Positions 2,894 through 26,339 of a stretch of DNA of 36,584 bases are shown here, piece by piece. This stretch comes from an uncultured bacterium (lineage in GTDB: Bacteria > Patescibacteriota > Patescibacteriia > Patescibacteriales > UBA12465), in assembly GCA_942492765.1 (NCBI GenBank), contig OW818634.1, forward strand, positions 859,159 through 895,742, written 5' to 3'. The first letter of the stretch is position 1, and each line of letters begins with the position of its first letter. Below the pieces are notes generated by a model. The model searched no databases. It saw only the letters and a list, made by a program, of their open reading frames with translations, and was not told the DNA's origin. Made by a program: the position numbers and the translations under genes.

Positions 2894-3283
2894 ATGAGAA
2901 TTTTAATCATTGATGACGACATCAGCGCCGCTACTACCCTCAAGGCCCTCTTGATGAGCCAGGAAAATTTTGATATCGATGTAGTCTATGCCGGCCGCGA
3001 AGGCTTAAATAAGATGATTGCCGAGCCGTCTTACGATCTGCTCATCCTCGATATCATGATGCCTGATTTTAGCGGCATCGAGGTCTGTCGCGCTATGGCC
3101 GCTAATGAGAAGTTGAAGCAGATTCCGGTCATGCTCGCTTCCGCTCTGCCGATCACTTCTAAAGAGCTGGGCGACCTGATGGCTGAATTCAAGGCCTTGA
3201 ATGTCGTCAAAGGCGTTTTAGAAAAGCCTTTCGTCGTTGAAGACCTGCTTACCGAAATCCATCGCATCGTCGATAAGAAATAA
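2894..3283 (+). CDS. Single-domain response regulator (receiver only)
   Basis: MRILIIDDD, LLILDIMMP (phospho-Asp), LASA, EKPF. Confidence 0.9.
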   Translation: MRILIIDDDISAATTLKALLMSQENFDIDVVYAGREGLNKMIAEPSYDLLILDIMMPDFSGIEVCRAMAANEKLKQIPVMLASALPITSKELGDLMAEFKALNVVKGVLEKPFVVEDLLTEIHRIVDKK

Positions 3284-3687
3284 TGCGGACTATGAAGATC
3301 CTTATCGTAGACAACGACGTCAGTACAGTCACTACTCTCAAAGCCTTGCTCTTGAGCCAGGCCTCTTTTGAGATTGATACGGCTTTCGGCGGACAGGAAG
3401 GGCTTGATAAGATGACGGCTCATCCTGATTATGACCTAGTGCTTTTAGATATTATGATGCCGACTGTCAGTGGCATGGACGTCTGTCAGGCCATGATGAA
3501 AAATTATCGTTTGCGGGAGATCCCGGTGCTCCTCATGTCTTCGGCTCTGCCTATCCCTCCGGGAGAATTCCACCAGTCGCTCGAAAGATTCAGCGCCCTG
3601 AGCGTTGTCAAAGGCGTGATTGAAAAGCCTTTCGTCATCGGCGATTTGTTAGCGGAGATAAATAAGACTGCTCGCCGCCCTCTATAA
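3283..3687 (+). CDS. Single-domain response regulator (receiver only), paralog of the upstream gene; start may be 3292
   Basis: MKILIVDND, LVLLDIMMP, LMSSA, EKPF. Confidence 0.9.
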   Translation: MRTMKILIVDNDVSTVTTLKALLLSQASFEIDTAFGGQEGLDKMTAHPDYDLVLLDIMMPTVSGMDVCQAMMKNYRLREIPVLLMSSALPIPPGEFHQSLERFSALSVVKGVIEKPFVIGDLLAEINKTARRPL

Positions 3688-3688
3688 T

Positions 3689-4933
3689 ATGATTTACGAC
3701 GTAGCGGTAATCGGCGGCGGCGCTTCCGGACTGATGGCTGCCGGCCGAGCCGGCGAACAGGGAGCCAAGGTTGTCCTGCTCGAGAAGAACGGGTCTGTCG
3801 GTCTCAAGCTGCTTATGACCGGCGGTACGCGTTGCAATCTGACTAATAATATTGCGGATTCTAAGATATTGGCGACTAATTTCGGCTCAGCGGGCCGTTT
3901 TTTAATTTCCGCTTTTTCCCGTTTCGGTCCGAAGGAAGTGATCGCTTTTTTCAATGGCCGCGGCGTAGCCACGAAGATTGAGAATAATAATCGTGTCTTT
4001 CCGGTGAGCGATAACGGCCGGGAAGTCTTGAAAGTTTTAGTCGATTACGCGCAGGCGGCCGGCGTCATGATTATGACTAACGCGGTCGTCAAGAACATAA
4101 TTCTCGAAAAAGGGAAGATAGCCGAGCTTGTCTTATCCGACGGGAAGAAGATAAAAGCTATAAATTATATCATCGCGACTGGCGGGCGCTCGTATCCCGT
4201 CACTGGCTCGAGCGGCGACGCTTATGACTGGCTGCGCCGTTTGGGGCATAATATAATAACGCCGTCTCCGGCTCTAGTTTCGATCCTAGTCGAGAATGAT
4301 TTTATCGCTGCGCTCGAAGGACTGAGCCGAGAAGAAGTGAGGCTGACCTTATGGCAAGACAAGAAAAAGATCGCGAGCGAGAACGGCGATATCCTTTTTA
4401 TGGCCGCTGGTCTTAGCGGCCCGGCCGCTTTGAATCTTAGCCGTTTCATCAGGCTGCCTTTGAGCGATAATCTGAGCTTGTCAATAGATTTTTTTCCTGA
4501 ATTCAAGATCGAAAGCCTAGATGAAGAGCTAAGGAAGATATTTTCCGGCAGCAATAAGGCGGTCAGGAATAGCTTGGCCGGAATCATCCCGCCCAAGCTT
4601 ATTCCCGTGATCGGCTCGTTAGCGCCGCTAGATATGGATAAGCTGGCTAATTCCGTCTCTAAGATAGAGCGCCAGCAGCTCGGCGGCTTGCTGAAGGATT
4701 TTCGTCTCGGCCTCAGAGGCCTAGGCGGATATGACAAGGCTATGATCACTGCGGGCGGCTTAGATCTGAAAGAAGTCGATCCCAAGACGCTGCGGTCGAA
4801 AATCATCCCTAATCTTTTCGTGGCCGGAGAAGTGCTTGATATCGCCGGACCGACCGGCGGTTTTAATCTCCAGGCTTGCTGGAGTACGGGCCGCATCGCC
4901 GGTGAAGCAGCGGCCCGGGTTAAAGCGGATTGA
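3689..4933 (+). CDS. HI0933/BaiN(YhiN)-family NAD(P)/FAD-dependent oxidoreductase
   Basis: VIGGGASGLMAA, KLLMTGGTRCNLTN, ATGGRSYPVTGSSGD, TAGG, AGEVLD..GPTGGFNLQ..WSTG. Confidence 0.92.
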   Translation: MIYDVAVIGGGASGLMAAGRAGEQGAKVVLLEKNGSVGLKLLMTGGTRCNLTNNIADSKILATNFGSAGRFLISAFSRFGPKEVIAFFNGRGVATKIENNNRVFPVSDNGREVLKVLVDYAQAAGVMIMTNAVVKNIILEKGKIAELVLSDGKKIKAINYIIATGGRSYPVTGSSGDAYDWLRRLGHNIITPSPALVSILVENDFIAALEGLSREEVRLTLWQDKKKIASENGDILFMAAGLSGPAALNLSRFIRLPLSDNLSLSIDFFPEFKIESLDEELRKIFSGSNKAVRNSLAGIIPPKLIPVIGSLAPLDMDKLANSVSKIERQQLGGLLKDFRLGLRGLGGYDKAMITAGGLDLKEVDPKTLRSKIIPNLFVAGEVLDIAGPTGGFNLQACWSTGRIAGEAAARVKAD

Positions 4934-4959
4934 AGAAATCGCCTCCAGCCGGCGTATTA
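4931..4959 (+). promoter_or_regulatory. Putative ECF sigma promoter, copy 1 (upstream of the sigma gene)
   Basis: tGAAGAAatcgcctccagcCGGCGTATTA. The same motif occurs at 6491 and 7395. The -10 CGTA resembles B. subtilis SigW promoters. Confidence 0.75.
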
Positions 4960-4990
4960 GCTTGACCGACAATATAATAATAACCCTAGC

Positions 4991-5575
4991 ATGATCGATA
5001 CTACTGGCGCGCAAAATTTAAGCGATGCGGAGCTTGTCAGTCTGACCCTGGAGAATCAGGATAATTTTTTATATCTAGTTGATCGGTATAAGGGCAAGCT
5101 GATGAATTATATCCGGCGCCTGACTAATATCAATGACGATGACGCTGAAGATATTCTTCAAGATGTCTTTATCAAGGTTTATCTGAATCTGAACGGCTTT
5201 GATACGGATTTGAAATTTTCTTCTTGGATATATCGGATCACGCATAATCAAGTCATCAGCCAGCACCGCAAGCTCAAGGCGCGGCCCGAGGGTTATGCCG
5301 TCAATATAGAAGATAAAGCTGCTTTAAGCTTGGCCGCGGATATTGATATAGAAGCCGGCGCCGACCTGAATATCATGAAGCATAATATCGCTAAGGTGCT
5401 CGGCGGCTTGGATCAGAAATATCGCGATATCCTGATCTTGAAGTTCTTGGAAGAGAAGAATTATCAGGAAATTTCCGATATTATCCGGAAACCGGCCGGC
5501 ACGGTCGCCTCGATGATCAATAAGGCTAAGAGCGAGTTTAAGAAAGAGCTCGTTAAGCAGAACATCATCTTATAA
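4991..5575 (+). CDS. ECF RNA polymerase sigma factor (SigW-like)
   Basis: Region 2: DAEDILQDVFIKVY...KFSSWIYRI.HN...RK. Region 4: L..KYR.ILILK..E...YQEISDI...P.GTV.S.IN.AK. Confidence 0.93.
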   Translation: MIDTTGAQNLSDAELVSLTLENQDNFLYLVDRYKGKLMNYIRRLTNINDDDAEDILQDVFIKVYLNLNGFDTDLKFSSWIYRITHNQVISQHRKLKARPEGYAVNIEDKAALSLAADIDIEAGADLNIMKHNIAKVLGGLDQKYRDILILKFLEEKNYQEISDIIRKPAGTVASMINKAKSEFKKELVKQNIIL

Positions 5576-5579
5576 ACAT

Positions 5580-6425
5580 ATGAACCATAATGAATTCGAC
5601 CAGAAATTGGTAGAAAAGATAAAAGAAGAGAAGATGGCGCCTAAGCCGCGCTGGCATTTTTTATTGAAGAACCAGGTAGTCTGGGTAGCTGGGACGCTGG
5701 CGCTTCTGATCGGAGCGGTGGCAGTTTCGGTCATGATCTATCTCTTGAAGAATAACGGTTGGGAATTGCAGGCGCAGACTAATAAGAGCATCCTGGAATT
5801 TTTCCTGCTGACTATGCCTTATTTCTGGATAATTTTTCTAGGGACATTCGTCTTCATTCTCTATTATAATGTTAAGCATACTGCCAAGGGTTATCGTTAT
5901 CCGGTCTGGATAATCGCTGTTTCTGGCGTCTTAGCTAGTTTCCTCTTAGGCAGCATCCTCTCCTTGTTTGGAGTGGGGCGGGCGATTGATAACGTCCTAG
6001 GGGAACGCGCCCCTTTATATGAGAAGGTTATCAATCGCCAGTTATCGTTTTGGTTTAATCCCGCTGAAGGGCGCCTAGCCGGGGTAATCGCCAGCGAAGT
6101 CGCGGACGGAAATTTTTATCTGGTCGATCCGGCCGGAGAAGCTTGGCAGATCACGAGCCAGAATCTGCGCGACGATGCGCCGATGGCTGATTTCCTGAAA
6201 GTCGGAGAACCGGTTAACCTGATCGGCAAAATCACGGAGGAAAATAGATTCCGCGCGGATTTCATCAGGCCGCTCGTTCCTGGACGCCGCTTTTTCGATC
6301 GTCCTAATATTCAAGAGCATCGCGGCCGCTGTCTGAAGGATAATTGCCTGAGACCGCTGCCGCCGCGGCCGATGCCGGAGAAGATGATGAGGCTAGACAT
6401 TATTCAAGAGCAGCCGGTCCGATAG
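5580..6425 (+). CDS. Multi-pass membrane protein, putative anti-sigma factor
   Basis: Starts 4 nt after the sigma stop. It has a short basic N-terminus, about 3-4 TM helices and a soluble C-terminal domain. Function is inferred from position only. Confidence 0.55.
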   Translation: MNHNEFDQKLVEKIKEEKMAPKPRWHFLLKNQVVWVAGTLALLIGAVAVSVMIYLLKNNGWELQAQTNKSILEFFLLTMPYFWIIFLGTFVFILYYNVKHTAKGYRYPVWIIAVSGVLASFLLGSILSLFGVGRAIDNVLGERAPLYEKVINRQLSFWFNPAEGRLAGVIASEVADGNFYLVDPAGEAWQITSQNLRDDAPMADFLKVGEPVNLIGKITEENRFRADFIRPLVPGRRFFDRPNIQEHRGRCLKDNCLRPLPPRPMPEKMMRLDIIQEQPVR

Positions 6426-6434
6426 GCTTTTACT

Positions 6435-6464
6435 AAAAATTTCCGCCAGCTGGCGGATTTTTTT
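6435..6464 (+). terminator. Intrinsic terminator
   Basis: tccgcc-agct-ggcgga stem followed by a T7 tract and preceded by an A5 tract. Confidence 0.8.
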
Positions 6465-6490
6465 GTAGCCTTTCAGCGATCGCCTTGACT

Positions 6491-6519
6491 CGAAGAAATA
6501 TTTTGGCATCGGCGTATTA
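6491..6519 (+). promoter_or_regulatory. Putative ECF sigma promoter, copy 2
   Basis: cGAAGAAatattttggcatCGGCGTATTA, with spacing identical to copy 1. Confidence 0.75.
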
Positions 6520-6600
6520 TCAAGTACGAAGGAAAACGAGGGCCCTCCTTTCCGCCAAAAGATTAATCATTAATCGACTTATTAACTAACTTATAAAAAT

Positions 6601-7083
6601 ATGAAACTGAATAACTTAACCAAAGGCGTCATCGCTTTTTCTACCCTCTCGATATTAGCGAGCGGAGCTTTGATGGCTAGCGCCGCGACTGATACGGCCG
6701 CTGCTAGTACGGCTAATGCGGTTGGAAACGGCCGTGGCCGCGGATTAGCGAAAGAAGCTCGAATTAGGCCGGAGAATATGACTGAGGCCCAGAAGGCAGC
6801 GGTTGAGGCTCGCCGGACGGAAATGGAAACAAAAATGACTGCAGTTAAAGCAGCTTTGACCGCCTCTGATTATAACGCTTGGGTGGCAGCGGAAAAAGCG
6901 ATCAATGAAGATTGCCCGATGCTGACTAAGGTAACTGCTGATAATTTCAGTAAGTATGCTGAGGCTATGAAGCTTCGCTTCCAGGCCGACACGATCATGA
7001 AGGACCTGGGAATCGATGGTCCGGGCATGGGTCTTGGTCTGGGCATGGGAATGGGCAGAGGTAATGGCCAAGCTCAGAAATAA
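6601..7083 (+). CDS. Secreted hypothetical protein with Gly/Arg- and Gly/Met-rich segments
   Basis: Signal peptide (..LMASA-A), GNGRGRG, helical core, C-terminal GPGMGLGLGMGMGRG. Confidence 0.75.
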   Translation: MKLNNLTKGVIAFSTLSILASGALMASAATDTAAASTANAVGNGRGRGLAKEARIRPENMTEAQKAAVEARRTEMETKMTAVKAALTASDYNAWVAAEKAINEDCPMLTKVTADNFSKYAEAMKLRFQADTIMKDLGIDGPGMGLGLGMGMGRGNGQAQK

Positions 7084-7115
7084 TAGCGGCTTAGGTTAAT
7101 TAACATAAATTTTTT

Positions 7116-7343
7116 ATGAAGAAGATGAAGGGTGTCTTGTTAGTTTCCATTTTTCTTCTGCTCCCGTTAGTATTCTTGACCGGATGCAGCAAAATCTCGC
7201 TGACCGGTTCGGCTACTGGCGTTCCAGCTGGTAATCAGATGGGAACTCCTCCTGAAGGCGGTATTCCTCCTGAAGGCGGAGCCGCGCCCATTGACGGAGA
7301 CATGCCTCCTGCAGGCGCTCCGAATGGCGCTCCAGCCAATTAA
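7116..7343 (+). CDS. Small lipoprotein with a Pro/Gly-rich disordered tail
   Basis: Lipobox FLTGC; the PPEGG repeat occurs twice (cctcctgaaggcgg x2). Confidence 0.7.
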   Translation: MKKMKGVLLVSIFLLLPLVFLTGCSKISLTGSATGVPAGNQMGTPPEGGIPPEGGAAPIDGDMPPAGAPNGAPAN

Positions 7344-7354
7344 AGGCGAATAAG

Positions 7355-7384
7355 AAAACAACCCGTTTCCGGCGGGTTGTTTTT
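7355..7384 (+). terminator. Intrinsic terminator
   Basis: aaaacaacccg-tttccgg-cgggttgtttt. Confidence 0.85.
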
Positions 7385-7394
7385 GCGTAATCAG

Positions 7395-7422
7395 CGAAGA
7401 ATTTTCTTTTGTCGGCGTATTA
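7395..7422 (+). promoter_or_regulatory. Putative ECF sigma promoter, copy 3 (upstream of the lipoprotein-MacAB-like operon)
   Basis: cGAAGAAttttcttttgtCGGCGTATTA, with a spacer 1 nt shorter than copies 1 and 2. Confidence 0.72.
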
Positions 7423-7474
7423 TTATTTATAGGCTTCAATGCTTGCCTATTATTGACATATTTTTAAAAAAATT

Positions 7475-8137
7475 ATGAAAAAAATTTTTCTCATCCCCGT
7501 TTCTTTTTTAGCCCTGCTTTTAGTACTGACTGGCTGTACTAAAGCTTCTCCGGCAACGGATAAGCAAGCTGAGCAGGATATTAATAAGCCTAGCCGAATG
7601 CGCCAGCCTGACTTCGGCCAGCCTGAGCGTACGCCTGATGTCCGAGGCATAGTCAAGAGCGTCGTCGGCAATGAAGTGACTATTCTAAAGATTGATCGTC
7701 AGCTGGGAAATCGCAATGCTAGCTCGACGACAGAGCAGGCTAATAATGGTTCGGCGACTAAGACTTCTGCCGTGAGTTTGACCGGGATTGCCGGCGGAGC
7801 CGGAGGAGGAGTTGGCGGTGGCCGGATGATGGGCGCCGGCGGACCAGGCGGTCCGGGAGAACAGACTTCTGAGACTAGGGCGCAGATGCTCGCGAAGCTT
7901 AAAGAAATGAGCACCGGCGAAGAGAAGATAATTATTCCAGTGGGTATCAGGATGCTGAAGATGGATACCAGTAATGATGCTAGAACCATGGTCGAAGCGA
8001 CGCTCGCTGATATCACGGCTGATAAGAATGTCGTCATCTGGATAAGCGCCCCGGCCGTGGCCGCTGAATCTGTCGCCGCTAGCAGCACTCCGGTCGCTAC
8101 TCCTAGCAAGATAGCGGAATTCGTTCTCATTAATTAA
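7475..8137 (+). CDS. Lipoprotein with a Gly-rich insert; possible DUF5666/OB-fold-like beta domain
   Basis: Lipobox VLTGC; GIVKSVVGNEVTI...IIIPVGIRM...ATLADI..DKNVVIW; GGAGGGVGGGRMMGAGGPGG. Confidence 0.6.
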   Translation: MKKIFLIPVSFLALLLVLTGCTKASPATDKQAEQDINKPSRMRQPDFGQPERTPDVRGIVKSVVGNEVTILKIDRQLGNRNASSTTEQANNGSATKTSAVSLTGIAGGAGGGVGGGRMMGAGGPGGPGEQTSETRAQMLAKLKEMSTGEEKIIIPVGIRMLKMDTSNDARTMVEATLADITADKNVVIWISAPAVAAESVAASSTPVATPSKIAEFVLIN

Positions 8138-8145
8138 CCAAATCT

Positions 8146-10008
8146 ATGGCTCAATCTATTCTCGAAGAAAGCAAGAAGGCTAAGCAAGGCATCTTTCATT
8201 TCGTCTTTAAGAAAAAATTTCTCATAATCTGCGGCGCTATCTTAATTATCGCCGGCGGATCGTATTATCTTTTCTTTTTTAATAAGCAGCAGTCAGCTGT
8301 CGCTGTCCAGCAGAAGCAGGTAACCGTCAAGAAAGCTGATTTGAAGATTTCCGTCAGTTCTAGCGGCAAGGTTGTCGCCAAAGACGGCGTAAAATTATCC
8401 TTTCCGGTCAGCGGCAATCTGGAGGTGAGTAATGTCTATGTCAAAGAAGGCGATAAGATCAAGAAAGGAGACAAGATCGCTTCCGTCAAGACAGAAACTT
8501 TGGAATTCGAATTGCGCAACGCTTATGCCAGCTACCAGTCAGCTTTAGCTAATTATAATGCTAAGGCCGATCCGGCCGCCAGTACGGTCAGCAAATCAAA
8601 AGCGTCCGTAGATCAAGCCCAAGTTTCCTTGGACCAGGCGAAGATTAGCTTGGAGCAGACTAAGATGACCACGGCGCAGAGCGTCGCCAATGCCGAGATG
8701 AGTGTCCAGACCGCGGCCAGTAACCTGAAGATGAATACTGATGTTAATGATAGCGAAATCGTGCGCAGCGCTTATTCCAGCCTCATCGCTTCCGTCAAAT
8801 CGATCAATATTTCCTTGCAGAAGATATTGCGTGATTCTGATAGCGTGCTCGGCGTGGATGATTCTATGATTAACGCTGATTTTAAATCCGTCTTAGGAGC
8901 CAGGGATTCGACTTCTTATGGCACGGCGAAAAATAGTTATAGTGCGGCTAAACAGGCGCGGACAGAATTGGATCTGCTTGCTAATTCCTTGTTTCTTTCA
9001 GATACGGCGGCTATAGACCGGGCGGCTGATAAGGCTGAAGACGTGCTAATAGTTTTCCAGAACCATTTATATGACATGCAGGCTCTCTTGGAAGCGACCA
9101 TCACTTCCGTCACTCTTTCGCAGTCTGAGCTGGATGGATTCAAATCGACAGTCAGCTCTGACCGGACGAACGTCAATTCCTCTATTTCCAGCCTGGATAA
9201 TTCCGTCCTTAGCGTCACTAACGCTAAGAGCAGCCTGGATCAATACGAATTAGCTTATGATAAGGCAGTCAATGATCTGGCCGTGGCCAAGAGCCAGGCC
9301 GAGCAGAACGTGAATAATTCGACTATTTCGGTCCATTCGCGCGAAATAGCGCTTGAGCAGGCCAAGAATGATTATAATATCTTAATTACGCCCTCTTCCG
9401 CGGACCTAGCTTCGGCTAGATCGCAGCTGACCTCGGCGGCCGTTTCCGTGGATCGAGCGAAATATAATGTCGAGCAAGCGACCCTAGTTTCTCCTATCGA
9501 CGGCGTAGTCGCGGCTCTTAATTATAAGACCGGAGACATCATCATGAGCGATGCGACCGATAAGACTATGGCTTCAATCATCAATAATGATACTCTGTTC
9601 ATCGAAGCGAACATCGAGGAGGCTGATATCAGCAAGCTCAAGGTCGGCGAGAAAGCGCAGGTGACTTTTGATGCTGTCGATGGAGTTGTCCTGACTGGCG
9701 AGGTGAGCTTCATCTCCCTGACTTCCGATACCAGCGCTAACGGCATCGTTACTTATCTTGTCCGCGTCATCCTAACTAATACCGCGGCCGCGCAGGTAAG
9801 GGAAGGCATGACCGCGGCGATCGAATTCGTCACGTCTGAAGCTCCCGGCGTCTTATCCATACCAGTCGCGGCTGTCCATAATATCGGTGGCAAGCCGGCG
9901 GTCGAGAAGCGAGACGGAACTGTCGCCAATGTTACGACCGGTTTCACCGACGGCAAGAATGTCGAAGTGATAAGCGGCCTGAGCGAAGGCGAGGTCATTG
10001 TTTACTAA
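8146..10008 (+). CDS. Efflux periplasmic adaptor subunit (MacA/YknX-like) with a greatly extended helical hairpin
   Basis: N-terminal TM anchor, lipoyl half V.V.EGDKIKKGD.IA, long coiled coil, second half L.SPIDGVV, beta-barrel I.EADI.KLKVG, membrane-proximal G..DGKNVEVISGL.EGE. Confidence 0.9.
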   Translation: MAQSILEESKKAKQGIFHFVFKKKFLIICGAILIIAGGSYYLFFFNKQQSAVAVQQKQVTVKKADLKISVSSSGKVVAKDGVKLSFPVSGNLEVSNVYVKEGDKIKKGDKIASVKTETLEFELRNAYASYQSALANYNAKADPAASTVSKSKASVDQAQVSLDQAKISLEQTKMTTAQSVANAEMSVQTAASNLKMNTDVNDSEIVRSAYSSLIASVKSINISLQKILRDSDSVLGVDDSMINADFKSVLGARDSTSYGTAKNSYSAAKQARTELDLLANSLFLSDTAAIDRAADKAEDVLIVFQNHLYDMQALLEATITSVTLSQSELDGFKSTVSSDRTNVNSSISSLDNSVLSVTNAKSSLDQYELAYDKAVNDLAVAKSQAEQNVNNSTISVHSREIALEQAKNDYNILITPSSADLASARSQLTSAAVSVDRAKYNVEQATLVSPIDGVVAALNYKTGDIIMSDATDKTMASIINNDTLFIEANIEEADISKLKVGEKAQVTFDAVDGVVLTGEVSFISLTSDTSANGIVTYLVRVILTNTAAAQVREGMTAAIEFVTSEAPGVLSIPVAAVHNIGGKPAVEKRDGTVANVTTGFTDGKNVEVISGLSEGEVIVY

Positions 10009-10026
10009 TAAGAGCAATCATCCGCT

Positions 10027-10737
10027 ATGTCTGGAAATATCGCTATAAAATTAGAGAATGCTCAGAAATCGTATTATCTGGGAAACGGCGAAGAGATCCC
10101 TGTCTTGAAGGGTATTAACCTGGAAATCAAGAAGGGTGAGTTCGTCGCGATCATGGGAGAATCCGGCGGCGGCAAGACTACGCTCTTGAATATCATCGGC
10201 TGCTTGCACCCGTTGACTAAAGGAAAATATTTTTTAGACGGAGAGAATATTGGAGAAGTGAAAGATGATTTTACGCTCGCTTTCATCCGCAATAAGAAGA
10301 TGGGCTTCGTCTTCCAGCAGTTCAATCTCTTCTCGCGTTTCTCCGCGCTGAAGAATGTCGCTCTGCCAGCTCTCTATGCCGGCATGCCGGCGGACGAACG
10401 CGAGAAAAAAGCGCAAGCCCTCCTTAAGTCAGTCGGCATGGGTGAGCGCGTCAATCATAAGCCGACGGAATTATCCGGCGGCCAGCAGCAGCGCGTCGCT
10501 ATCTGCCGCGCCTTGATAAACGATCCGGAAATAATCTTGGCGGACGAACCGACCGGCGCTCTGGATTCTAAATCCGGCTTAGAAGTCATGGATATTTTTA
10601 CGGAATTCAAGAAGCAGGGTCGGACCGTCGTTATGGTCACTCATACTGCCGAGGTCGCGAAGTATGCCGACCGGGTTATCTATTTGCGCGACGGTCAGGT
10701 ATTGAGTGATAATTATAAGCTGCATAGCGACTATTAA
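10027..10737 (+). CDS. ABC transporter ATP-binding protein (MacB/LolD family)
   Basis: Walker [38 protein letters not shown]. Confidence 0.95.
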
Positions 10738-10738
10738 T

Positions 10739-11935
10739 ATGAATCTGGAAATTATCAAAATGGCTTTTGAATCATTGCTGGCCAAGAAGACACGGACATT
10801 CTTGTCTATGCTCGGCATTATCATCGGCGTGGCTACGGTCATCGCCGTTTTTGCCGTCGGCCAAGGAGCACAGGAATCGGTTAATTCCCAGTTTCAGAAT
10901 TTGAGCGCCAATTCTATCCTGATCATGCCGAATCGCGGCCGCGGCTTCACCAGCAGTTCGAAATTGAAAACCGCCGACGCCCAATTATTATTAAGCGCCG
11001 ATCATATCGCTTCTGCTACCGGTGCTATCCAGGGAAACGCGACAGTCTCGTTCGGCTCGACCGATAAGAGTTATAGCGTCGTCGGCGTGGATCAGAACTT
11101 TATTTCTATTTCTAATCTCTCTATTGAGCAAGGACGCGGCATCGAGCAGGATGATATCGATAATAAGACGACAGTCGGCGTTATCGGCGCCACGGTCGTT
11201 TCCGATCTTTTTTCTGACGGTATCAGCCCCATCGGCCAAGAGATCACAGTCAGCGGTAAGAAGATCGAAATCGTGGGTGTTCTGAAAAAATTAGGTTCGC
11301 GCATCGGTATGATTTCTGTCGATTCGGCCGTTATCATTCCGAGCACGACCGCTGAGAAAAGCATCCTGGGCTCGAAAGGGCAAGTGATGATCACGACTGC
11401 GGTCGATAACGTCGATAATTCTGGTTTGGCGACTTCGAGCATTACCGCCTTGTTAAGAGAAGAGCATAAGCTGAAGGCTAGCCAGGAAAATGATTTTCAG
11501 ATCATGGATGCCGGCAGCATGGTCGCGGCCGCGCAAGCTTCGGCCAAGACCATGTCCGCTCTTCTGACCGCGATTGCCGCGATTACCTTATTGGTTTCCG
11601 GCATCGGCATCATGAATGTCATGTTCGTGACCGTAGCCGAAAGGACCAAAGAGATCGGCATCGCCAAGGCTATCGGCGGCAAGCGTTCCGATATCTTGAG
11701 TCAGTTCTTGTTGGAATCAGTTATCCTCTCGACGGTCGGCGGCGTGATTGGCATGATCATTGGCCAAGGGGCAATTCCGCTCATTTCCTATTTTGATATC
11801 ATCAGTATGGCCTCTTCTATAAATGGTCCGGTCATCGGCTTTACTTTTTCCGTCCTCGTCGGCGTCTTTTTTGGCTTTTATCCCGCCTTCCAGGCCAGCC
11901 GTCTCGATCCGGTTGACGCGCTGAGGAGCGAATAG
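10739..11935 (+). CDS. ABC transporter permease (MacB/FtsX family); start reassigned from 10706 to ATG 10739
   Basis: RTFLSMLGIIIGVA.V, large extracytoplasmic loop, GIGIMN.M.V.V.ERTKEIGI.KAIG, PA..A.RLDPVDALRSE. Confidence 0.93.
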   Translation: MNLEIIKMAFESLLAKKTRTFLSMLGIIIGVATVIAVFAVGQGAQESVNSQFQNLSANSILIMPNRGRGFTSSSKLKTADAQLLLSADHIASATGAIQGNATVSFGSTDKSYSVVGVDQNFISISNLSIEQGRGIEQDDIDNKTTVGVIGATVVSDLFSDGISPIGQEITVSGKKIEIVGVLKKLGSRIGMISVDSAVIIPSTTAEKSILGSKGQVMITTAVDNVDNSGLATSSITALLREEHKLKASQENDFQIMDAGSMVAAAQASAKTMSALLTAIAAITLLVSGIGIMNVMFVTVAERTKEIGIAKAIGGKRSDILSQFLLESVILSTVGGVIGMIIGQGAIPLISYFDIISMASSINGPVIGFTFSVLVGVFFGFYPAFQASRLDPVDALRSE

Positions 11936-11971
11936 GCCTGATCATGGCTCGAGCTTATTTTTATAGGGCAT

Positions 11972-11998
11972 AAAACTTCCTGCCTGGGAAGTTTTTTT
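11972..11998 (+). terminator. Intrinsic terminator
   Basis: aaaacttcc-tgcctg-ggaagtttt followed by a T tract. Confidence 0.8.
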
Positions 11999-12049
11999 AT
12001 TTTCGCGGGGATGATATCATATATCCATAATTAATATTAGGGGATCTAT

Positions 12050-12940
12050 ATGACGGACAATGTGATCATAGTTAATCCGGACAAGCTAGGGAAGATAAAA
12101 GAGAATATTAAGCAAGCCGGAGCGGAATCTGTCCATATATTATCTGATTTTGACCGTACCCTGACTTATCATTCTCAGGCCGGCCGCAAGAATTCCGCTC
12201 TGATTGCTGTCTTGCAGGACGGAGACTACTTGCCTCAGGAATATCGTAATCAGGTAGCCGCTTTATATCAGAAATATTATCCGATTGAATATGATCCCGA
12301 TATCCCTCTGCCGGAGAAAAAAGCGGCTATGGTCGAATGGTGGAATGAAGCTTTCGGATTATTGATAGCTTTCGGCCTAACCGAAGATATTGTCAGGCGC
12401 GCTGTAGCCGATAGCCGGATCAAGCTTAGGGACGGGGTAGAGGCTTGGCTGGATACGATCAAGGCTCTCGGCATTCCTCTGGTCATCTTTTCCGCATCGG
12501 CTTTTGGCAAGGAAGCGATCGATGTCTTCTTGGATAATCTTCAGCGCCATCTGCCTGATATTCATATCATGGCCAATTCTTTCATCTGGAACGAGGCCGG
12601 GAAGGCGGTCGGCATCCGTGAGCCAATCATCCATTCCTATAATAAAGACGAGACTTTGATTCAGGATTTTCCTTTCTTCCCGGAAATAAAAAATCGCCGC
12701 AATGTTATCTTGTTCGGCGATTCTTTAGGCGACGTCGGCATGGCCGAAGGCTTCGAGCACGATAATCTTCTAAAAATCGGCTTCCTGAATGAAGGAGCGG
12801 ATAATAATCTCCCTAGCTTCAAGCAGGCTTACGATGTCGTCATCATGGGCGACGCTTCTTTCGATTTCGTCAATTATTTATTTTCAGATCTTTTTCCGGC
12901 GCATCAGGAGAGTGTTGAGCACGACGCTGACCGAGGATAA
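12050..12940 (+). CDS. HAD-superfamily pyrimidine 5'-nucleotidase (UMPH-1/cN-III, NT5C3-like)
   Basis: SDFDRTLT (motif I), KxxxMVEWW, IPLVIFSA, ANSF, IIHSYNK, NVILFGDSLGDVGM, LKIGFLN, YDVVIMGD. Confidence 0.8.
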   Translation: MTDNVIIVNPDKLGKIKENIKQAGAESVHILSDFDRTLTYHSQAGRKNSALIAVLQDGDYLPQEYRNQVAALYQKYYPIEYDPDIPLPEKKAAMVEWWNEAFGLLIAFGLTEDIVRRAVADSRIKLRDGVEAWLDTIKALGIPLVIFSASAFGKEAIDVFLDNLQRHLPDIHIMANSFIWNEAGKAVGIREPIIHSYNKDETLIQDFPFFPEIKNRRNVILFGDSLGDVGMAEGFEHDNLLKIGFLNEGADNNLPSFKQAYDVVIMGDASFDFVNYLFSDLFPAHQESVEHDADRG

Positions 12941-15229
12941 GGACATAGCTCCGGCCGCGACGATCGGGCTGAGCAATAATCCATAGGCCGGATAAAAAGC
13001 GCCGCCAGCTAAGGGCAGGGCGACGATATTATAGAAGAAGGCCCAGAAGAGATTTTGCTTTATCTTCTTGATAGTGAGACGGGAGATCATGATTGCCTTG
13101 ATTATTTTGGAGAGATCGCCGTGAAGCACGGTGATGTCAGCCGACTCGATTGCGACGTCTGATCCGGTCGCCATCGCGATGCCGATATCAGAGGCAGTCA
13201 GCGCGACCGCATCGTTCACTCCATCTCCGACCATGGCGACCGCTAGGCCGCCTTTTTTTAATTCTTTAACCTTATCAGCTTTCTCTAGCGGAGAAATTTC
13301 GGCGATGACTTCATCGATGCCGGCCAGGTCGGCAATATGGCGGGCGGCTTCATAACGGTCGCCGCTCAGCATCACTGTCTTTAGGCCGAGGCGCTTCAAT
13401 TCTGAAATCGCGGCCGCGGCGCCTGGCTTGATGGTATCGGCGACAGCGATGATGCCTAAGATATTCTTTCCCTCGCTTAGGATCATAGAGGTCTGTCCTT
13501 CTTTTTCTAAGGCTGTAATCTTGTCCATCGGCAGGTCAGCGCCTAATGCCCGCAGCATCTTCACGTTGCCGAGATGATATTTCTGGCCGTCGATCAGGCC
13601 GCTGACGCCCTGGCCGCTGATAGCGGAGAATTCAGACGTCTCTAATAAAGGAATATTCTCTTGTCTAGCATGAGCTATGACTGCCTGCGCGAGCGGATGT
13701 TCGGAATTATTCTCTAGGGAAGCGGCGAGCGCGATAATCTTGGCAGGGGAGTTATTCTGATTAAGAGTGATGATTTCTGTGACTGCCGGCTGTCCGCTAG
13801 TGATAGTGCCGGTCTTATCAAGCGCGATGATTTTGACGCGGCCTAATCTTTCTAGGGCATCAGCATTCTTGATGAGCAGTCCGTTCTTGCTGGCTAGACC
13901 GAGGCCGACGATTATTCCGGTCGGCGTCGCGAGACCGAGGGCGCAAGGGCAGGCGATAGCAAGGACGCTGATGAAAGCGGTGAGACCTAAGCTGACTGAT
14001 TCGGCCCAGCCCAAGTAGCGCGGTCCGATTATTAGCCAGGCGCCCAAGGTCAGGACAGATAAAGCAAGGACTATCGGCACGAAGATGCCGGAAACTTCGT
14101 CAGCTAATTTTTGGATAGGCGCTTTGGAATTCTGGGCATCAGAGATCGCCTTGATTATATTAGCGATGACCGTGTCGGCTCCGACTTTATTTATTTTGAC
14201 TTTCAGGACGCCTTGCTTGTTCAAGGTCGAACCGATGACTTCATCGCCGTTACTCTTATCTACAGGCAAGGATTCTCCGGTGATGAGCGCTTCGTCTACG
14301 GCTGACAGGCCGCTGACGACGATGCCGTCAGCCGGAATCTTCATGCCCGGTTTGACGATGACGATATCCCCGACCCTTAATTCGCTGATCGGAGTTTCTT
14401 TCTCTTGCCCGTCGATTTCCACTAGCGCCGTTTTGCTCTGCAGGCTCATCAGCTTCTCGATCGTGTCATTAGTCCTGAGCTTGGCTTTGTTCTCTAGATA
14501 TTTTCCTAAGTAGACGAGCGTAATGACGACGATAGTGACATCGAAGAAATAATTTTCGCCTAATCCGAGCGCCTGTCTCAGAGCTGGGAAAAGATATATC
14601 AGGGTCGAATAGAAATACGCGGTGCCGGTGCCGATCCCGATGAGGGTATCCATATTAGCGCGGCCGTAGCGGAAGAAGCGGCCGGCGCCTTTTAAGAAAT
14701 CGCGGCCGAGCCAGAAGATGATGACGGTCGCAGTAATGAAGACGAGCGGCATGAATATCGTTCCCGGAATCAGTTCAGCTGGCGTAAATTTGAAATAACT
14801 GGCGGCGAGCGACCAGAAGACCGCTATCAGGATTAAGCTCATGAGCGGCAAGGCGATCTTTAATTTATTCTTTTGGCTCTCTAGCTCCGCCAGCTTAGCG
14901 GCTCTCATCGTCCGCAGATCGCCTCCGGCCGCCAGGCCGTGGTCCATATGATCATGATCCATGTTCATATGATCCATGTCCGCTTGGCCCGCGGGTTTTG
15001 CAGAAGATAAGCTATCTGGAAATTTTAAGCCATAGCCTAATTTTTCCAGATTCTTATTGGCCGAAGCCGGAGAGAAAGACTCGGCCTCGAATTCCAAGTT
15101 AGCCTCTTCGGTCAACGGGTTGACTTGGATGTTTTTTACTCCAGGCTCTTTCTTGAGCTCTTTCTCAACGATCTTGGCGCAGGAGGCGCAATGCAGGCCG
15201 CTGACGCCGATGCGAATTTTGTTTTCCAT
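12884..15229 (-). CDS. copA: Copper-translocating P1B-type ATPase
   Basis: HMA GLHCASC, His/Met linker, ANMDTL, TGES, ACPCALGLATP, DKTGT, SEHPLA, GDGVND, YN..ALP, MSLSSVSV. Confidence 0.95.
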   Translation of the reverse strand: MENKIRIGVSGLHCASCAKIVEKELKKEPGVKNIQVNPLTEEANLEFEAESFSPASANKNLEKLGYGLKFPDSLSSAKPAGQADMDHMNMDHDHMDHGLAAGGDLRTMRAAKLAELESQKNKLKIALPLMSLILIAVFWSLAASYFKFTPAELIPGTIFMPLVFITATVIIFWLGRDFLKGAGRFFRYGRANMDTLIGIGTGTAYFYSTLIYLFPALRQALGLGENYFFDVTIVVITLVYLGKYLENKAKLRTNDTIEKLMSLQSKTALVEIDGQEKETPISELRVGDIVIVKPGMKIPADGIVVSGLSAVDEALITGESLPVDKSNGDEVIGSTLNKQGVLKVKINKVGADTVIANIIKAISDAQNSKAPIQKLADEVSGIFVPIVLALSVLTLGAWLIIGPRYLGWAESVSLGLTAFISVLAIACPCALGLATPTGIIVGLGLASKNGLLIKNADALERLGRVKIIALDKTGTITSGQPAVTEIITLNQNNSPAKIIALAASLENNSEHPLAQAVIAHARQENIPLLETSEFSAISGQGVSGLIDGQKYHLGNVKMLRALGADLPMDKITALEKEGQTSMILSEGKNILGIIAVADTIKPGAAAAISELKRLGLKTVMLSGDRYEAARHIADLAGIDEVIAEISPLEKADKVKELKKGGLAVAMVGDGVNDAVALTASDIGIAMATGSDVAIESADITVLHGDLSKIIKAIMISRLTIKKIKQNLFWAFFYNIVALPLAGGAFYPAYGLLLSPIVAAGAMSLSSVSVVLNTLLMRRKKI

Positions 15230-15257: not shown

Positions 15258-16598
15258 TTATTTTTCAACGACCTGGAAGCTGCCGGTGTACATGCCCATA
15301 GAGCAGGAGAAGGGGATAGATCCGGTTTTAGTGGGCGTGAATTCAATGATATTCTCGCCGCGCTCCAATTGTTTTTGGATCCTGAGAGACGGGACGATCA
15401 AGGCGCTGGCGCAGGAATATGGCGCTTCGGCCGTAATTATCCAGCGGACCGGCTTGTCTTTGATGATCGTGAACTTATTCGGTAAATAGCCGCGGTTATT
15501 TTCCGTCATCCTGATGATTTGGATATCGTTATTTTCCCGATCAGTATTAGCGGCGGAATTATTTTTTTCTGCTTGTTCTTTTTTGACGCCTGTTTCTGCT
15601 GTGCCGGAAATCCTGAATAGCTTATAGCCGTTATTGAGATTGAATAGGCCGAAGATGACGATGATAATGCCAGCGGCTTTGAAGAAAGAAACATTTTTTC
15701 GGCCGCTTAATAACGAAGCTAGGCCGCCTATGCCCAGGAGTCCGGGCGCGGTGCCGAGCGCGAATAACCCCATGACGAGGCCGCCTTTCAGGAAACTTCC
15801 AGAATTCAGAGCATATAATTGCATCGCCTGCGTGAAGCCGCAGGGCATGAAGAAGGTTAGGGCGCCGAGGGCGAGCGGGTTATCTATCTTTAAGATTCTG
15901 CCCCAGCTCTTAGGCAAGGAAAAATCTAGGCGATTGATGAAAGGGAATATATCTAGCAGCTTTAATCCGAGAATCAGGATTATCAGGCCGACAAAGATGG
16001 TGATCAGACTGTTGGCGAGGGCAGAGAGCTTGAAGACGCCGCCGATGACGCCCAATATTCCTCCGAGCGCGAAGAAGCCGAGAACACGGCCGGCGTTGAA
16101 TAATAGATGGGGCCGGAATTTCTGGCGCGCGCTAGCTTCAGGATGGCTTTTGGCATAATTAGCCGCCAGGCCCATGACTAAGCCGCCGACCAGCGCTAGA
16201 CAGGTTGAAGCGCCGGCAATCAAGCCGACGATGACAGCCAGAGGCCAAGAAAAATCTCGGTTAAGCCAGCTGCTCGGATCTAGATTTATCTGGTTGAAGA
16301 CCCAAAAGATGATCAGGACGGAACTGACGAGCGTCACGCCTTGGCTGAAGCTGGCGCCGCGCTTGCGAGTATCATCAGGAAGCTTCTTTTCGCCCAATCC
16401 ATAGCCGGCCTCTTTCAAGCGATGCTCAATCTCTTTCAGGCTCGGCTCTTCGCCTTCATAAGATATTTCCGCTTCTTCCGCGCTGAGATCGACAGAGACA
16501 TCTTTGACGCCCCTGATTTCCTTAAGAGCGTCTTCAGTCAGGATGACGCAGGCCTTGCAGTGCAGCCCGGAGACTGGCACGCTTATCTTCTTGAGCAT
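15258..16598 (-). CDS. HMA domain + DsbD/CcdA(TauE-like) transmembrane domain + C-terminal cupredoxin-like domain fusion
   Basis: GLHCKAC; TM Cys pair in ASTCLALVGG and FMPCGFTQ; C-terminal YSCA and FSCSMGMYTG. Confidence 0.85.
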   Translation of the reverse strand: MLKKISVPVSGLHCKACVILTEDALKEIRGVKDVSVDLSAEEAEISYEGEEPSLKEIEHRLKEAGYGLGEKKLPDDTRKRGASFSQGVTLVSSVLIIFWVFNQINLDPSSWLNRDFSWPLAVIVGLIAGASTCLALVGGLVMGLAANYAKSHPEASARQKFRPHLLFNAGRVLGFFALGGILGVIGGVFKLSALANSLITIFVGLIILILGLKLLDIFPFINRLDFSLPKSWGRILKIDNPLALGALTFFMPCGFTQAMQLYALNSGSFLKGGLVMGLFALGTAPGLLGIGGLASLLSGRKNVSFFKAAGIIIVIFGLFNLNNGYKLFRISGTAETGVKKEQAEKNNSAANTDRENNDIQIIRMTENNRGYLPNKFTIIKDKPVRWIITAEAPYSCASALIVPSLRIQKQLERGENIIEFTPTKTGSIPFSCSMGMYTGSFQVVEK

Positions 16599-16624: not shown

Positions 16625-16897
16625 TTATTTATTCGCTAGCTTGTTGACTTTCAAGATCTCGTCGACCATGCGCTGTTTCAGCTTCTCGTTCTTAGAGGCC
16701 ATGGCGTTCTTGAAGCAGCTATTGAGATGGCCGTCTAAAAGCATCTGGTGCGCAGACTTGAGCAGGCCGATGACGGCCAGATTCTGCTGCATGATATCGA
16801 TGCAATAATCGCCTTTCTCAGTCATAGTAATCAGCTTCTCGGTTAAGCTCTTCGCCTTCTTGAAATTTATTAGAATCTTCTTTCTGTCTTGAGACAT
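16625..16897 (-). CDS. csoR: CsoR/RcnR family metal-sensing transcriptional repressor
   Basis: YCIDIMQQ..AV..LL......L.GHLNSC (Cys-His-Cys ligand set); first gene of the copA operon. Confidence 0.88.
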   Translation of the reverse strand: MSQDRKKILINFKKAKSLTEKLITMTEKGDYCIDIMQQNLAVIGLLKSAHQMLLDGHLNSCFKNAMASKNEKLKQRMVDEILKVNKLANK

Positions 16898-17048: not shown

Positions 17049-17113
17049 GAGGATTGCTTGATTTATGCGAGCATTGTTTGATTTATTTAATTTTGGCTCG
17101 TAATCTGCCTATT

Positions 17114-17863
17114 ATGACATTATATTTATATATCTTCGGCAGCGTTCTGCTGGTTTCTTTCCTGTCTCTCTTCGGAGTCTTTTTTTTGTCGTTCTCGCCG
17201 CGTTTCATGGAGAAGCTGACCTTATTCCTCGTCAGCCTTTCAGCCGGAACCTTGCTGGGCGACAGCTTCTTGCATCTTTTGCCCGAAGCGGCGGCTGATA
17301 ATGGCGCCAGCTTACGGATGTGGCTCTGGCTGATAATCGGATTAGTCTCTTTCTTCGTGCTCGAGAAGATAGTTCATTGGCGGCATTGCCATATCCAGAC
17401 CTGTCCGACGCATCCGCATCACCTAGGCATCATGAATCTTGTCGGCGATTGCCTGCATAATTTTTTTGACGGCGTCATCATCGCCGGCTCGTTCTTGGTC
17501 AGCCTGCCTCTGGGCCTGACTACCCTGATAGCGGTCATCGCTCATGAGATACCGCAGGAGATCGGTGATTTCGGAGTTTTGCTCTATGCGGGCTATTCGC
17601 GTCGCCGCGCCTTGTTCCTTAATTTCGTCACGGCGCTCACTGCCGTTTTTGGAGCGGTCATCGCGATAGTTCTTGGCGCGCGCATCAATAATTTTTCTGA
17701 TCTGATAATCCCGTTCACGGCCGGCGGCTTCATCTATATCGCGACCGCCGATTTGATTCCGGAATTGAAGAAAGAAACGGCCGCCCGTAAGTCCTTATAT
17801 CAATTGATCAGCATCATCGTCGGTATCGGCATCATGCTGGCCTTGAAAGTCATCTTCGAATAA
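17114..17863 (+). CDS. ZIP (ZupT-like) family divalent metal transporter; start reassigned from 17054 to ATG 17114
   Basis: LLGDSFLHLLPEA, His-rich loop HWRHCHIQTCPTHPHH, GDCLHNFFDG, HEIPQEIGDF. Confidence 0.92.
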   Translation: MTLYLYIFGSVLLVSFLSLFGVFFLSFSPRFMEKLTLFLVSLSAGTLLGDSFLHLLPEAAADNGASLRMWLWLIIGLVSFFVLEKIVHWRHCHIQTCPTHPHHLGIMNLVGDCLHNFFDGVIIAGSFLVSLPLGLTTLIAVIAHEIPQEIGDFGVLLYAGYSRRRALFLNFVTALTAVFGAVIAIVLGARINNFSDLIIPFTAGGFIYIATADLIPELKKETAARKSLYQLISIIVGIGIMLALKVIFE

Positions 17864-17881
17864 ATAATAAGAATCTTAAAT

Positions 17882-19789: not shown

Positions 19790-19811
19790 GCCAAGCAATC
19801 AATAAGCTCGT

Positions 19812-25652: not shown

Positions 25653-26339
25653 TTAGCGTGCGTTCAGCTTATTGAGGGAGAGCTTATAGCCGCGGCCGGT
25701 GAAAGTATGGATGAGGTTGCGGCGCCGTCCGCTATTCAATTTTCGGCGCAAGCTGGCGATATGCGTCTCGACAGAATTAGAGAAAGGATCGGCATTATAG
25801 TCCCAGACATGCTCGAGAATCTGGTTGCGCGAAACGATATTATTGCGGTTGATCATCAGATATTCGAGCAAGGCAAACTCGCGGCGCGTCAGGTATATTT
25901 CCTGGCTGCCGCGGCGGATTATCTTAGTCTGCGTATTCAGGGTCAGATTATCGACCTTGTATAAGCCGCTTTCGGCTTTAGCCGGCCGCTTCAAGATAGC
26001 GCGGACATGGAGCAGAAGCTCTTCAAACAGGAAAGGCTTAGTCAGATAATCATCAGCGCCGAGACGGAACAGCTCGTCCTTGTCTTTGAGCTCTGATTTG
26101 ATCGTCAGCATCAGGACCGGGACATGCTTGTTCTCTTGGCGTATCTCTTGCAATACCTCTGAACCGTTTAATTTCGGCAGCATGTAATCAAGAATAATCA
26201 GGTCGTAGGTCCCAGTCCGTCCCAAGAAAGCGCCGCGTTCGCCGTCGAGCGCGCTTTCGACGACATACATATTCGCTTCTAACCCGTCTTTTAGGAACTG
26301 GACGATGGCCGGCTCATCGTCGATGATAAGGATCTTCAT
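25653..26339 (-). CDS. OmpR/PhoB family DNA-binding response regulator (orphan)
   Basis: MKILIIDDE, ILDYMLP, DDYLTKPF, LTRREFALL, VETHIASLRRKL, GRGY. Confidence 0.94.
   Translation of the reverse strand: MKILIIDDEPAIVQFLKDGLEANMYVVESALDGERGAFLGRTGTYDLIILDYMLPKLNGSEVLQEIRQENKHVPVLMLTIKSELKDKDELFRLGADDYLTKPFLFEELLLHVRAILKRPAKAESGLYKVDNLTLNTQTKIIRRGSQEIYLTRREFALLEYLMINRNNIVSRNQILEHVWDYNADPFSNSVETHIASLRRKLNSGRRRNLIHTFTGRGYKLSLNKLNAR

Follow-up and report, generated by a model that had tools for sequence, protein, structure and literature searches.

In Bacillus subtilis, the exporter operon yknWXYZ reportedly depends on sigma-W, a sigma factor of the extracytoplasmic function (ECF) class. Promoters read by sigma-W have a TGAAAC −35 element and a CGTA −10 sequence, the latter conferring selective recognition by sigma-W, and a T-tract right behind the −35 box is typical of them (PMC5758882). 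We analysed a stretch of 36,584 nucleotides (36.6 kb; hereafter the window) of contig OW818634.1, from an uncultured bacterium of the Patescibacteria, in which a bipartite motif, GAAGAA-N11/12-CGGCGTATTA, precedes an ECF sigma factor gene and two further transcription units. Members of the candidate phyla radiation (CPR), or Patescibacteria, have very small genomes and are almost all uncultured, and to our knowledge their gene regulation is essentially unmapped. An original prediction, made from the letters of this stretch, had read the motif as the signature of an ECF regulon, and we found support for this interpretation. Because the motif stands out in footprinting, occurs in strand-specific excess in independent genomes and belongs to a graded series that leads to the canonical TGAAAC-N16/17-CGTA, the three copies very probably serve as promoters for RNA polymerase that contains the ECF sigma factor of 4991-5575. 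The circuit is, as judged from sequence comparison, of the B. subtilis sigma-W type in a form particular to its lineage, and it is conserved across many Patescibacteria.

The predicted promoter motif and its conservation

The original prediction had placed copies of the motif at 4931, 6491 and 7395. The motif indeed occurs exactly three times in the window, always on the + strand; the positions were one base low, and the exact matches to GAAGAAN{11,12}CGGCGTATTA are at 4932-4959, 6492-6519 and 7396-7422. Not one of 100 dinucleotide-preserving shuffles of the window contained an exact match. The −10 half alone, with up to two mismatches allowed, was unremarkable (51 matches vs. 37.6 expected), and its only exact copies are these three. 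Scored with a position matrix trained on 22 orthologous sites from relatives, promoters 1, 2 and 3 reached 31.8, 34.7 and 30.9 bits, respectively, and the runner-up on either strand of the window, at 10090 within the exporter ATPase gene, 15.2 bits.

The predicted promoters and the terminators that delimit their transcription units are as follows.

4932..4959, + strand: predicted promoter 1, autoregulatory; −35 box GAAGAAA at 4932-4938, −10 box GCGTATTA at 4952-4959
6442..6464, + strand: intrinsic terminator at the end of unit 1; 6-bp GC-rich hairpin followed by U7
6492..6519, + strand: predicted promoter 2; −35 box GAAGAAA at 6492-6498, −10 box GCGTATTA at 6512-6519
7354..7385, + strand: intrinsic terminator at the end of unit 2; hairpin CAACCCG...CGGGUUG followed by a U-run
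7396..7422, + strand: predicted promoter 3; −35 box GAAGAAT at 7396-7402, −10 box GCGTATTA at 7415-7422
11972..12002, + strand: intrinsic terminator at the end of unit 3; 10-bp hairpin followed by U7

The variant −35 box that had been proposed, GAAGAA, was borne out in the fuller form GAAGAAA, which is kept in the orthologous sites, and it reads as GAAAGAAA minus one A. The proposed extended −10 element, CGGCGTATTA, did not hold, as its CG is poorly kept (C in 12 and G in 14 of the 22 training sites); the conserved −10 box is GCGTATTA, in which G-C-G-T-A is invariant in 22/22. When GAAG was aligned on the usual ECF GAAC, it lay 16/17 nt from CGTA in the window sites and in the 22 training sites. 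The arrangement is thus that of an ECF-type promoter, with a GAAC-type −35 and a CGT-type −10 element about 16-17 nt apart, in which G replaces the C of GAAC. Outside the boxes, the sequence around the three copies is unrelated. A known RNA family or a longer repeat was ruled out as the source of the motif, since neither was found: no Rfam family matched anywhere in the window or overlapped the motif copies, and no longer repeat lies beneath them, copies 2 and 3 sharing only 12 nt. Likewise, the region 4500-12500 has no excess of housekeeping sigma-70 promoters (10 found vs. 10.0 expected).

Every gene between 3689 and 12940 is on the + strand. As had been claimed, each motif copy is intergenic or at a gene boundary and correctly oriented, 31-81 nt before a start codon. 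Promoter 1 runs over the TGA stop codon (4931-4933) of the flavoprotein gene ahead of it, with 31 nt left between its end and the sigma ATG (4991); promoter 2 ends 81 nt before the ATG of a secreted-protein gene (6601), and promoter 3, whose spacer is 1 nt shorter than in the other two, 52 nt before a lipoprotein ATG (7475). The gene content described earlier was also correct, with the sigma factor and a membrane protein behind copy 1, a secreted protein and a lipoprotein behind copy 2, and a lipoprotein and a MacB-type exporter behind copy 3. Copies 2 and 3 directly follow hairpin and U-run terminators (6442-6464 and ~7354-7385), again in line with the earlier description; the 52-nt segment 7344-7395, which holds the second of these, has a folding energy of −18.1 kcal/mol. 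Because terminators bound the units, the locus consists of three insulated transcription units with one motif copy ahead of each.

Phylogenetic footprinting, a check that had been named beforehand, was based on two sets of loci: the contigs of seven sigma homologues 68-96% identical to the window sigma (L001-L008), and 80 loci from one-genome-per-species representatives (L009-L088; sigma 31-74% identical), found with the sigma alignment as a query. The boxes were kept at the same three gene positions, and spacers and flanks had diverged completely. In L001-L008, the gene order of sigma, membrane protein, secreted protein, (lipoprotein) and exporter was preserved with the motif at the same three positions. 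Throughout this set and the species representatives down to ~49% sigma identity, GAAGAAA and GCGTATTA were constant in a 27/28-nt frame, and spacer and flanking sequence varied, as did even the gene before the site. The promoter 1 boxes lie upstream of sigma in 16 loci with differing upstream genes, and the promoter 2 site precedes the secreted-protein gene in 18 loci. The promoter 3 site precedes the operon of the lipoprotein and membrane-fusion protein in relatives, and also in L141, L144 and L157. The sites follow their genes through rearrangements: in L030, the secreted-protein gene is 5 kb from sigma and retains its site; in L157, where the exporter operon comes directly after the membrane-protein gene, the site lies between the membrane-protein and membrane-fusion-protein genes; and L008, with no exporter operon nearby, retains sites 1 and 2.

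A matrix scan, also suggested with the original prediction, was run on the 36.6 kb window and the loci of relatives. In the 79 non-training loci (1.08 Mb), the sigma strand carried 18 hits of at least 20 bits and the opposite strand none, against a mean of 0.25 for the two strands together in shuffles. Most of these 18 hits stand immediately before sigma or before a homologue of the secreted-protein gene, and the remaining few precede neighbouring genes. The motif lies upstream of its own sigma operon, the arrangement expected of autoregulation, in the 16 loci of the GAAGAA class, and variant boxes do so in 32 more.

We also scanned metagenomes with the pattern GAAGAAAN{10,11}CGGCGTATTA and obtained at least 120 matching stretches. 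Among the matches listed, 12 were at sigma, secreted-protein or exporter loci in the correct orientation, and the others had no homologue of the sigma factor, the membrane protein or the secreted protein nearby. No remote regulon member was established among the listed matches, which are dominated by chance hits. Two candidates were rejected as chance matches: L098, where the match is in a duplicated coding segment, and L206, where it lies inside a 190-aa open reading frame on the opposite strand (probably nadD; no domain-search confirmation).

Extra motif-like sites of 17-28 bits were observed in relatives. They precede a 115-aa secreted-protein paralogue just upstream of sigma (L006:9498 and L011:8480), a Cys/His/Met-rich membrane protein (L012:11090), a SHOCT-domain protein (L007:936) and a Cys-rich membrane protein (L040:4742); a weak site at L012:17307 precedes a second ECF sigma gene. 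The genes behind these sites are candidate accessory regulon members. We must also note that several records with a Patescibacteria-type locus (L009, L010, L012, L016, L027, L028 and others) go under the title 'uncultured Gammaproteobacteria bacterium' or that of 'uncultured Candidatus Saccharibacteria', titles whose taxonomy looks unreliable.

Two further features of the leaders were observed. A TATAAT hexamer is present at 4973-4978, between promoter 1 and the sigma start codon, and a TATAAT-like hexamer lies 3-13 nt before the sigma start both here and in the majority of close relatives (L001, L003-L006, L008, L009, L011, L016). This hexamer might act as an additional −10 box of housekeeping type, from which a nearly leaderless basal transcript of sigma would arise, or it may be mere AT-rich leader sequence. 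The secreted-protein gene has in its 5′ leader a short hairpin or palindromic sequence, GGAAAACGAGGGCCCTCCTTTCC (~6529-6551), from about 10 nt past the −10 box of promoter 2. Most relatives have a palindrome of different sequence in the same place, often centred on a palindromic tetranucleotide (GGCC, AGCT or GATC). Folding z-scores were weak (−0.2 to −3.2), yet more negative than those of the promoter 1 and 3 leaders. The palindrome might stabilise the 5′ end as a stem-loop, or it might be an operator.

The sigma factor and probable recognition of the −35 box

The gene downstream of promoter 1 had been called an ECF sigma factor, correctly so, as its domains, family score and nearest structure agree.

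4991..5575, + strand: ECF (group IV) sigma factor, SigW-like, 194 aa; Pfam, NCBIfam and PDB profile matches

The protein matched Pfam Sigma70_r2 (2.5e-15) and Sigma70_r4_2 (9.4e-09) with no region 3 match, which is the domain composition of group IV, its 194 aa fall within the ~170-200 aa expected of such proteins, and it scored 91.5 bits against TIGR02937 sigma70-ECF (cutoff 42.9). The closest solved structure is B. subtilis SigW (PDB 5wuq; E = 3.6e-23, second best 4.6e-13). Against the SigW equivalog models NF007223 and TIGR02948, it reached 100.5 and 89.3 bits, below the cutoffs of 209 and 243 that mark orthologues; SigW is therefore the top match under the equivalog cutoff, and we call the protein SigW-like only. 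Homologues at E ≤ 1e-10 numbered 2157; the best 120 of these were 68-100% identical, and the named ones among them were metagenome-assembled genomes of Patescibacteria or Candidatus Falkowbacteria. Together with the length of the window's contig, 895,742 bp, this supports the assignment to the CPR.

The −35 box upstream of sigma shifts in step with the divergence of the sigma factor, and the most distant homologues have the canonical SigW-type TGAAAC-N16/17-CGTA. The classes, with the identity of their sigma factors to that of the window, are given below.

−35 GAAGAA upstream of sigma: 16 loci, sigma 49-100% identical
−35 GAAAGAAA upstream of sigma: 13 loci, sigma 37-56% identical
−35 GAAATAA upstream of sigma: 13 loci, sigma 33-54% identical
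GAAAC-N16/17-CGTA upstream of sigma: 6 loci, mainly Acidobacteria, sigma 31-49% identical

Counted from the G of GAA, CGTA is 20/21 nt away in the GAAGAA class and 21/22 nt away in the other classes, compared to 21 nt in the B. subtilis sigW consensus TGAAAC-N16-CGTA. Spacers are T-rich in window sites 2 and 3 and in many relatives. Within the sigma factor, the residue with the highest mutual information with the −35 class was residue 174 (window ~5510-5512), located in the region 4.2 helix GTVA-S-MINKAK, where the recognition helix starts. It is Ser in 16/16 GAAGAA loci and Thr in 13/13 GAAAGAAA loci; Thr, Ile or Val occupy it in the GAAATAA loci, and Asn in five of the six GAAAC loci, the sixth having Thr. 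The residue of B. subtilis SigW aligned with it is Thr, and we take the position to be that of the −35-contacting serine of E. coli sigma-E. We hypothesise that residue 174 tracks −35 specificity.

Several observations weigh against recognition of the three copies by this sigma factor, or against parts of that picture. GAAGAAA, as a −35 box, does not have the C that the usual GAAC contains, and its spacing falls 1 nt short of that in relatives. Simple patterns found no motif upstream of sigma in 39 of the 87 loci, mostly distant ones, and the correlation of residue 174 with the −35 class is confounded by phylogeny. The conserved TATAAT that follows promoter 1 and precedes the sigma ATG points to an additional input of housekeeping type, the partner protein has no known anti-sigma domain, and the transcription starts are predictions only. 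Finally, a different ECF sigma factor encoded elsewhere in the genome could be the true reader, as the scan covered 36.6 kb and a second ECF sigma gene lies nearby in L012.

The last point is the stronger of the alternatives, in the form that the motif is read by another sigma factor, either an ECF paralogue encoded elsewhere or a housekeeping-type sigma of unusual specificity. The window is ~4% of the contig, the second ECF sigma gene of L012 is 8 kb from the first and has a weak motif copy (17.6 bits), and ECF sigma factors with CGTA or CGTC −10 boxes can overlap in promoter recognition (PMC5758882). Nevertheless, the motif is directly upstream of this particular sigma in 16 loci and co-varies with its sequence, and it was found neither in the other intergenic regions of the window nor in the flanks of the relatives' loci (1.08 Mb), housekeeping genes included. 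We consider a different reader improbable.

Slightly less probable still is that a transcription factor, such as a nearby response regulator, binds the motif, which would then not be a sigma recognition element. Conserved upstream boxes by themselves cannot separate operators from promoters, and two single-domain receiver proteins are encoded just upstream (2894-3687) and an OmpR-type regulator at 25653-26339. The nearby receivers, however, have no DNA-binding domain and are missing from many motif-bearing loci. The two boxes are unlike each other and form neither a palindrome nor a direct repeat; their frame is fixed at 27/28 nt, the spacer sequence is free, and they always point to the gene. 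Moreover, CGTA, the ECF hallmark, is the second of the boxes, and at this place distant homologues show the canonical TGAAAC-N16/17-CGTA. That the copies are functionless, a chance or neutral repeat or the remnant of a small duplicated or mobile sequence, is effectively excluded by the comparative data, even though short AT-rich intergenic regions may share words and most exact metagenome matches listed are chance hits in unrelated organisms and coding regions: no match arose in 100 shuffles, no extended repeat surrounds the copies, and dozens of species have retained the boxes amid flanks that diverged.

With the three copies taken as promoters of the ECF sigma factor, we propose the following sequence of events. 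In the resting state, the sigma factor would be held at the membrane by the co-transcribed protein with three membrane helices and an OB fold, and a signal from outside the membrane would lead to its release. The freed sigma factor would boost its own operon through promoter 1, turn on the secreted helical protein and the small lipoprotein through promoter 2, and turn on the lipoprotein and the YknXYZ/MacAB-like exporter through promoter 3. The terminators observed ahead of promoters 2 and 3 would insulate the units, each unit presumably depending on its own promoter. From the products, we infer a role in envelope stress, and the regulon may be self-contained.

Partner protein, probable target genes and surroundings

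The original prediction had named a sigma/anti-sigma pair. The tight gene linkage stood, and the anti-sigma label is a functional guess, with no recognisable anti-sigma domain behind it.

5580..6425, + strand: candidate anti-sigma/sensor, 281 aa, starting 4 nt past the sigma stop codon

Searches with the partner protein returned no Pfam, NCBIfam or PDB relatives and none in any anti-sigma family, the recognisable domains being a class I anti-sigma domain, zf-HC2, RskA and the like. The database names of its homologues are all 'hypothetical protein' or evident mis-annotation. Members of the family begin with a short shared helix, xxLxKIKxxxIxPxPRWxFLLK, at the N-terminus; three membrane helices, in which PYFW and HTKxGYRY are conserved, come next, and a beta-barrel forms the C-terminal part. 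An AlphaFold2 model built with an alignment of database homologues had a predicted local distance difference test score (pLDDT) of 80.9; Foldseek matched it only to OB folds (CcmE, RPA32 and RMI; best E = 1.9e-3) and to no anti-sigma structure. A cytoplasmic N-terminus followed by three passes through the membrane would leave the OB domain facing outwards.

A homologue of the partner follows sigma in 65 of the 87 loci, with gaps mostly of −26 to +20 nt. At L038:768-1997, on a 2.2 kb contig with Ns downstream, sigma and the membrane protein form one continuous reading frame of 409 aa, which may be a natural fusion or possibly an assembly error. The linkage in 65/87 loci and the L038 fusion appear to support a functional link between sigma and partner, and only that. 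It is plausible that the partner is an anti-sigma factor or sensor of an undescribed type. Much more tentatively, it might represent an undescribed structural class of anti-sigma factor, in which the N-terminal helix of ~25 residues holds sigma and the OB fold senses an external, maybe metal-linked signal, and the circuit might be among the few stress-response circuits common to Patescibacteria. The metal link is suggested because copper and zinc genes surround the locus.

The genes behind promoters 2 and 3 are listed below.

6601..7083, + strand: secreted helical protein, 160 aa; signal peptide, LTxxQ-like motif
7116..7343, + strand: small lipoprotein, 75 aa; lipobox LTGC, Pro/Gly-rich tail, no Pfam match
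7475..8137, + strand: lipoprotein, 220 aa, first gene of the exporter operon; lipobox LTGC, no Pfam match, syntenic in relatives
8146..10008, + strand: membrane-fusion protein of HlyD/MacA/YknX type, 620 aa; N-terminal membrane anchor, HlyD_D23, HlyD_3 and Biotin_lipoyl_2
10027..10737, + strand: ATP-binding cassette (ABC) ATPase of MacB/LolD/YknY type; ABC_tran 1.3e-32, MacB N-terminal half 1.6e-77
10739..11935, + strand: MacB-type permease, 398 aa; MacB_PCD 1.5e-36, FtsX 5.7e-19, MacB half 1.6e-65

In the family alignment, the secreted protein has the LTxxQ-like motif, a DYxAW...NFxxYVxAxxLRxQA core and a Gly/Met/His-rich tail. It scored 18.5 bits against Pfam Metal_resist (cutoff 29.2); of 15 homologues, four matched Metal_resist weakly and one LTXXQ, and two of 56 homologues have the JGI label 'Spy/CpxP'. 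A PDB profile search with the protein found no Spy, CpxP, ZraP or CnrX, and Foldseek gave no match to its model (best E 6.3; pLDDT 66.9 overall, with the core at 60-140 confident). With Pfam scores below the cutoffs and the PDB profile and Foldseek searches negative, we did not adopt a Spy/CpxP/ZraP-like chaperone as its identity and treat that resemblance as no more than a lead. Short in-frame tandem repeats were observed in both genes of this unit: a GPGMG-type unit in the Gly/Met-rich tail of the secreted protein (7017-7049), and an 18-nt in-frame unit, repeated twice, in a PPEGG-type stretch of the 75-aa lipoprotein (7242-7277).

The exporter had been described as MacAB-like, and its domains bear this out: an ABC ATPase and a permease with MacB_PCD and FtsX accompany a membrane-fusion protein, the composition of a MacB-type (type VII) exporter with a membrane-fusion protein as in MacAB or YknXYZ. 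The membrane-fusion protein matched HlyD_D23 at 3.4e-17 and TIGR01730 at 125 bits, and its homologues match PF25990 Beta-barrel_YknX. The permease likely starts at ATG 10739, according to the gene calls in relatives and the sequence, and not at GTG 10706, which would overlap the ATPase gene by 32 nt. The exporter operon contains no YknW (Yip1-family) gene, its first gene encoding the lipobox protein with no Pfam match.

The surroundings are rich in genes for metal homeostasis. A cupredoxin gene is located at 2142-2588. On the − strand, a copper-type P-type ATPase (12884-15229), an HMA-DsbD_2-cupredoxin fusion protein (15258-16598) and a CsoR-family repressor (16625-16897) are encoded, and a ZIP transporter, a second membrane-fusion protein and a resistance-nodulation-division (RND) pump occupy 17054-23282. 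Among loci of at least 12 kb, copper- or zinc-type genes were within 9 kb of sigma in 11 of 19 with a sigma at least 50% identical and in 5 of 36 below 50%. This neighbourhood is a lead towards a metal-related signal, in part explicable by shared ancestry. Further downstream, in two large adjacent proteins (26528-31198 and 31337-33406), BspA-type leucine-rich repeats occur together with a peptidoglycan-binding domain at the C-terminus; four 'atrophied bacterial Ig' domains are present in addition in the first, which has 1556 aa. Both probably lie on the cell surface and may serve to attach the cell to a host.

Comparison with described systems

The locus offers a concrete, testable CPR regulatory circuit in which a single sigma factor would act through a defined promoter sequence on three target operons, and its motif can be traced across dozens of species. 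ECF sigma factors usually function in heterologous hosts, and the pairing of sigma and promoter as well as the anti-sigma role of the partner can therefore be tested without culturing. The series GAAAC, GAAAG/GAAAT and GAAGA, tracking residue 174 (mostly Asn, then Thr, then Ser), would be a natural experiment on the evolution of −35 specificity. The original prediction knew of no description of such a system in CPR bacteria; likewise, our literature full-text search, which did not extend to the supplement of the ECF classification, found no such regulon in CPR/Patescibacteria. The main text of that classification leaves CPR and Parcubacteria unmentioned (Casas-Pastor et al. 2021, PMC7826278).

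The ECF groups of the classification that have predicted autoregulatory promoters resemble the locus in combining a sigma factor and a neighbouring membrane protein with a conserved context and a group-specific bipartite motif upstream of sigma (Casas-Pastor et al. 2021, PMC7826278). CnrH/CnrY/CnrX of Cupriavidus likewise consists of an ECF sigma factor, a short non-canonical membrane anti-sigma factor (in the window, a candidate) and a secreted helical partner. Weak Metal_resist/LTXXQ matches, the two JGI 'Spy/CpxP' labels and the copper/zinc surroundings recall this system and Spy/CpxP/ZraP; in contrast, the Pfam matches are below the cutoffs, and the PDB profile and Foldseek searches found no Spy, CpxP, ZraP or CnrX. 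The secreted protein of the window also belongs to a separate transcription unit and is not encoded between the sigma and anti-sigma genes, unlike in the Cupriavidus system.

The resemblance to B. subtilis sigma-W/RsiW extends over the nearest solved structure, the CGTA −10 element, a GAA-rich −35 box, a T-rich spacer and an autoregulatory promoter (PMC5758882). The window differs in its −35 box, GAAGAAA instead of TGAAAC, with a spacing 1 nt shorter, in a partner with three helices and an OB fold instead of an RsiW-type zinc anti-sigma factor, and in its host, a Patescibacteria genome of ~0.9 Mb. The exporter resembles YknXYZ in its anchored membrane-fusion protein, separate ATPase and MacB-like permease (PMC4887032), and differs from YknWXYZ in that a lipoprotein takes the place of YknW (Yip1). 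The type of circuit, an autoregulated ECF sigma factor driving an exporter, is thus textbook, its logic is closest to that of sigma-W with yknXYZ, and its most novel element is the uncharacterised partner protein.

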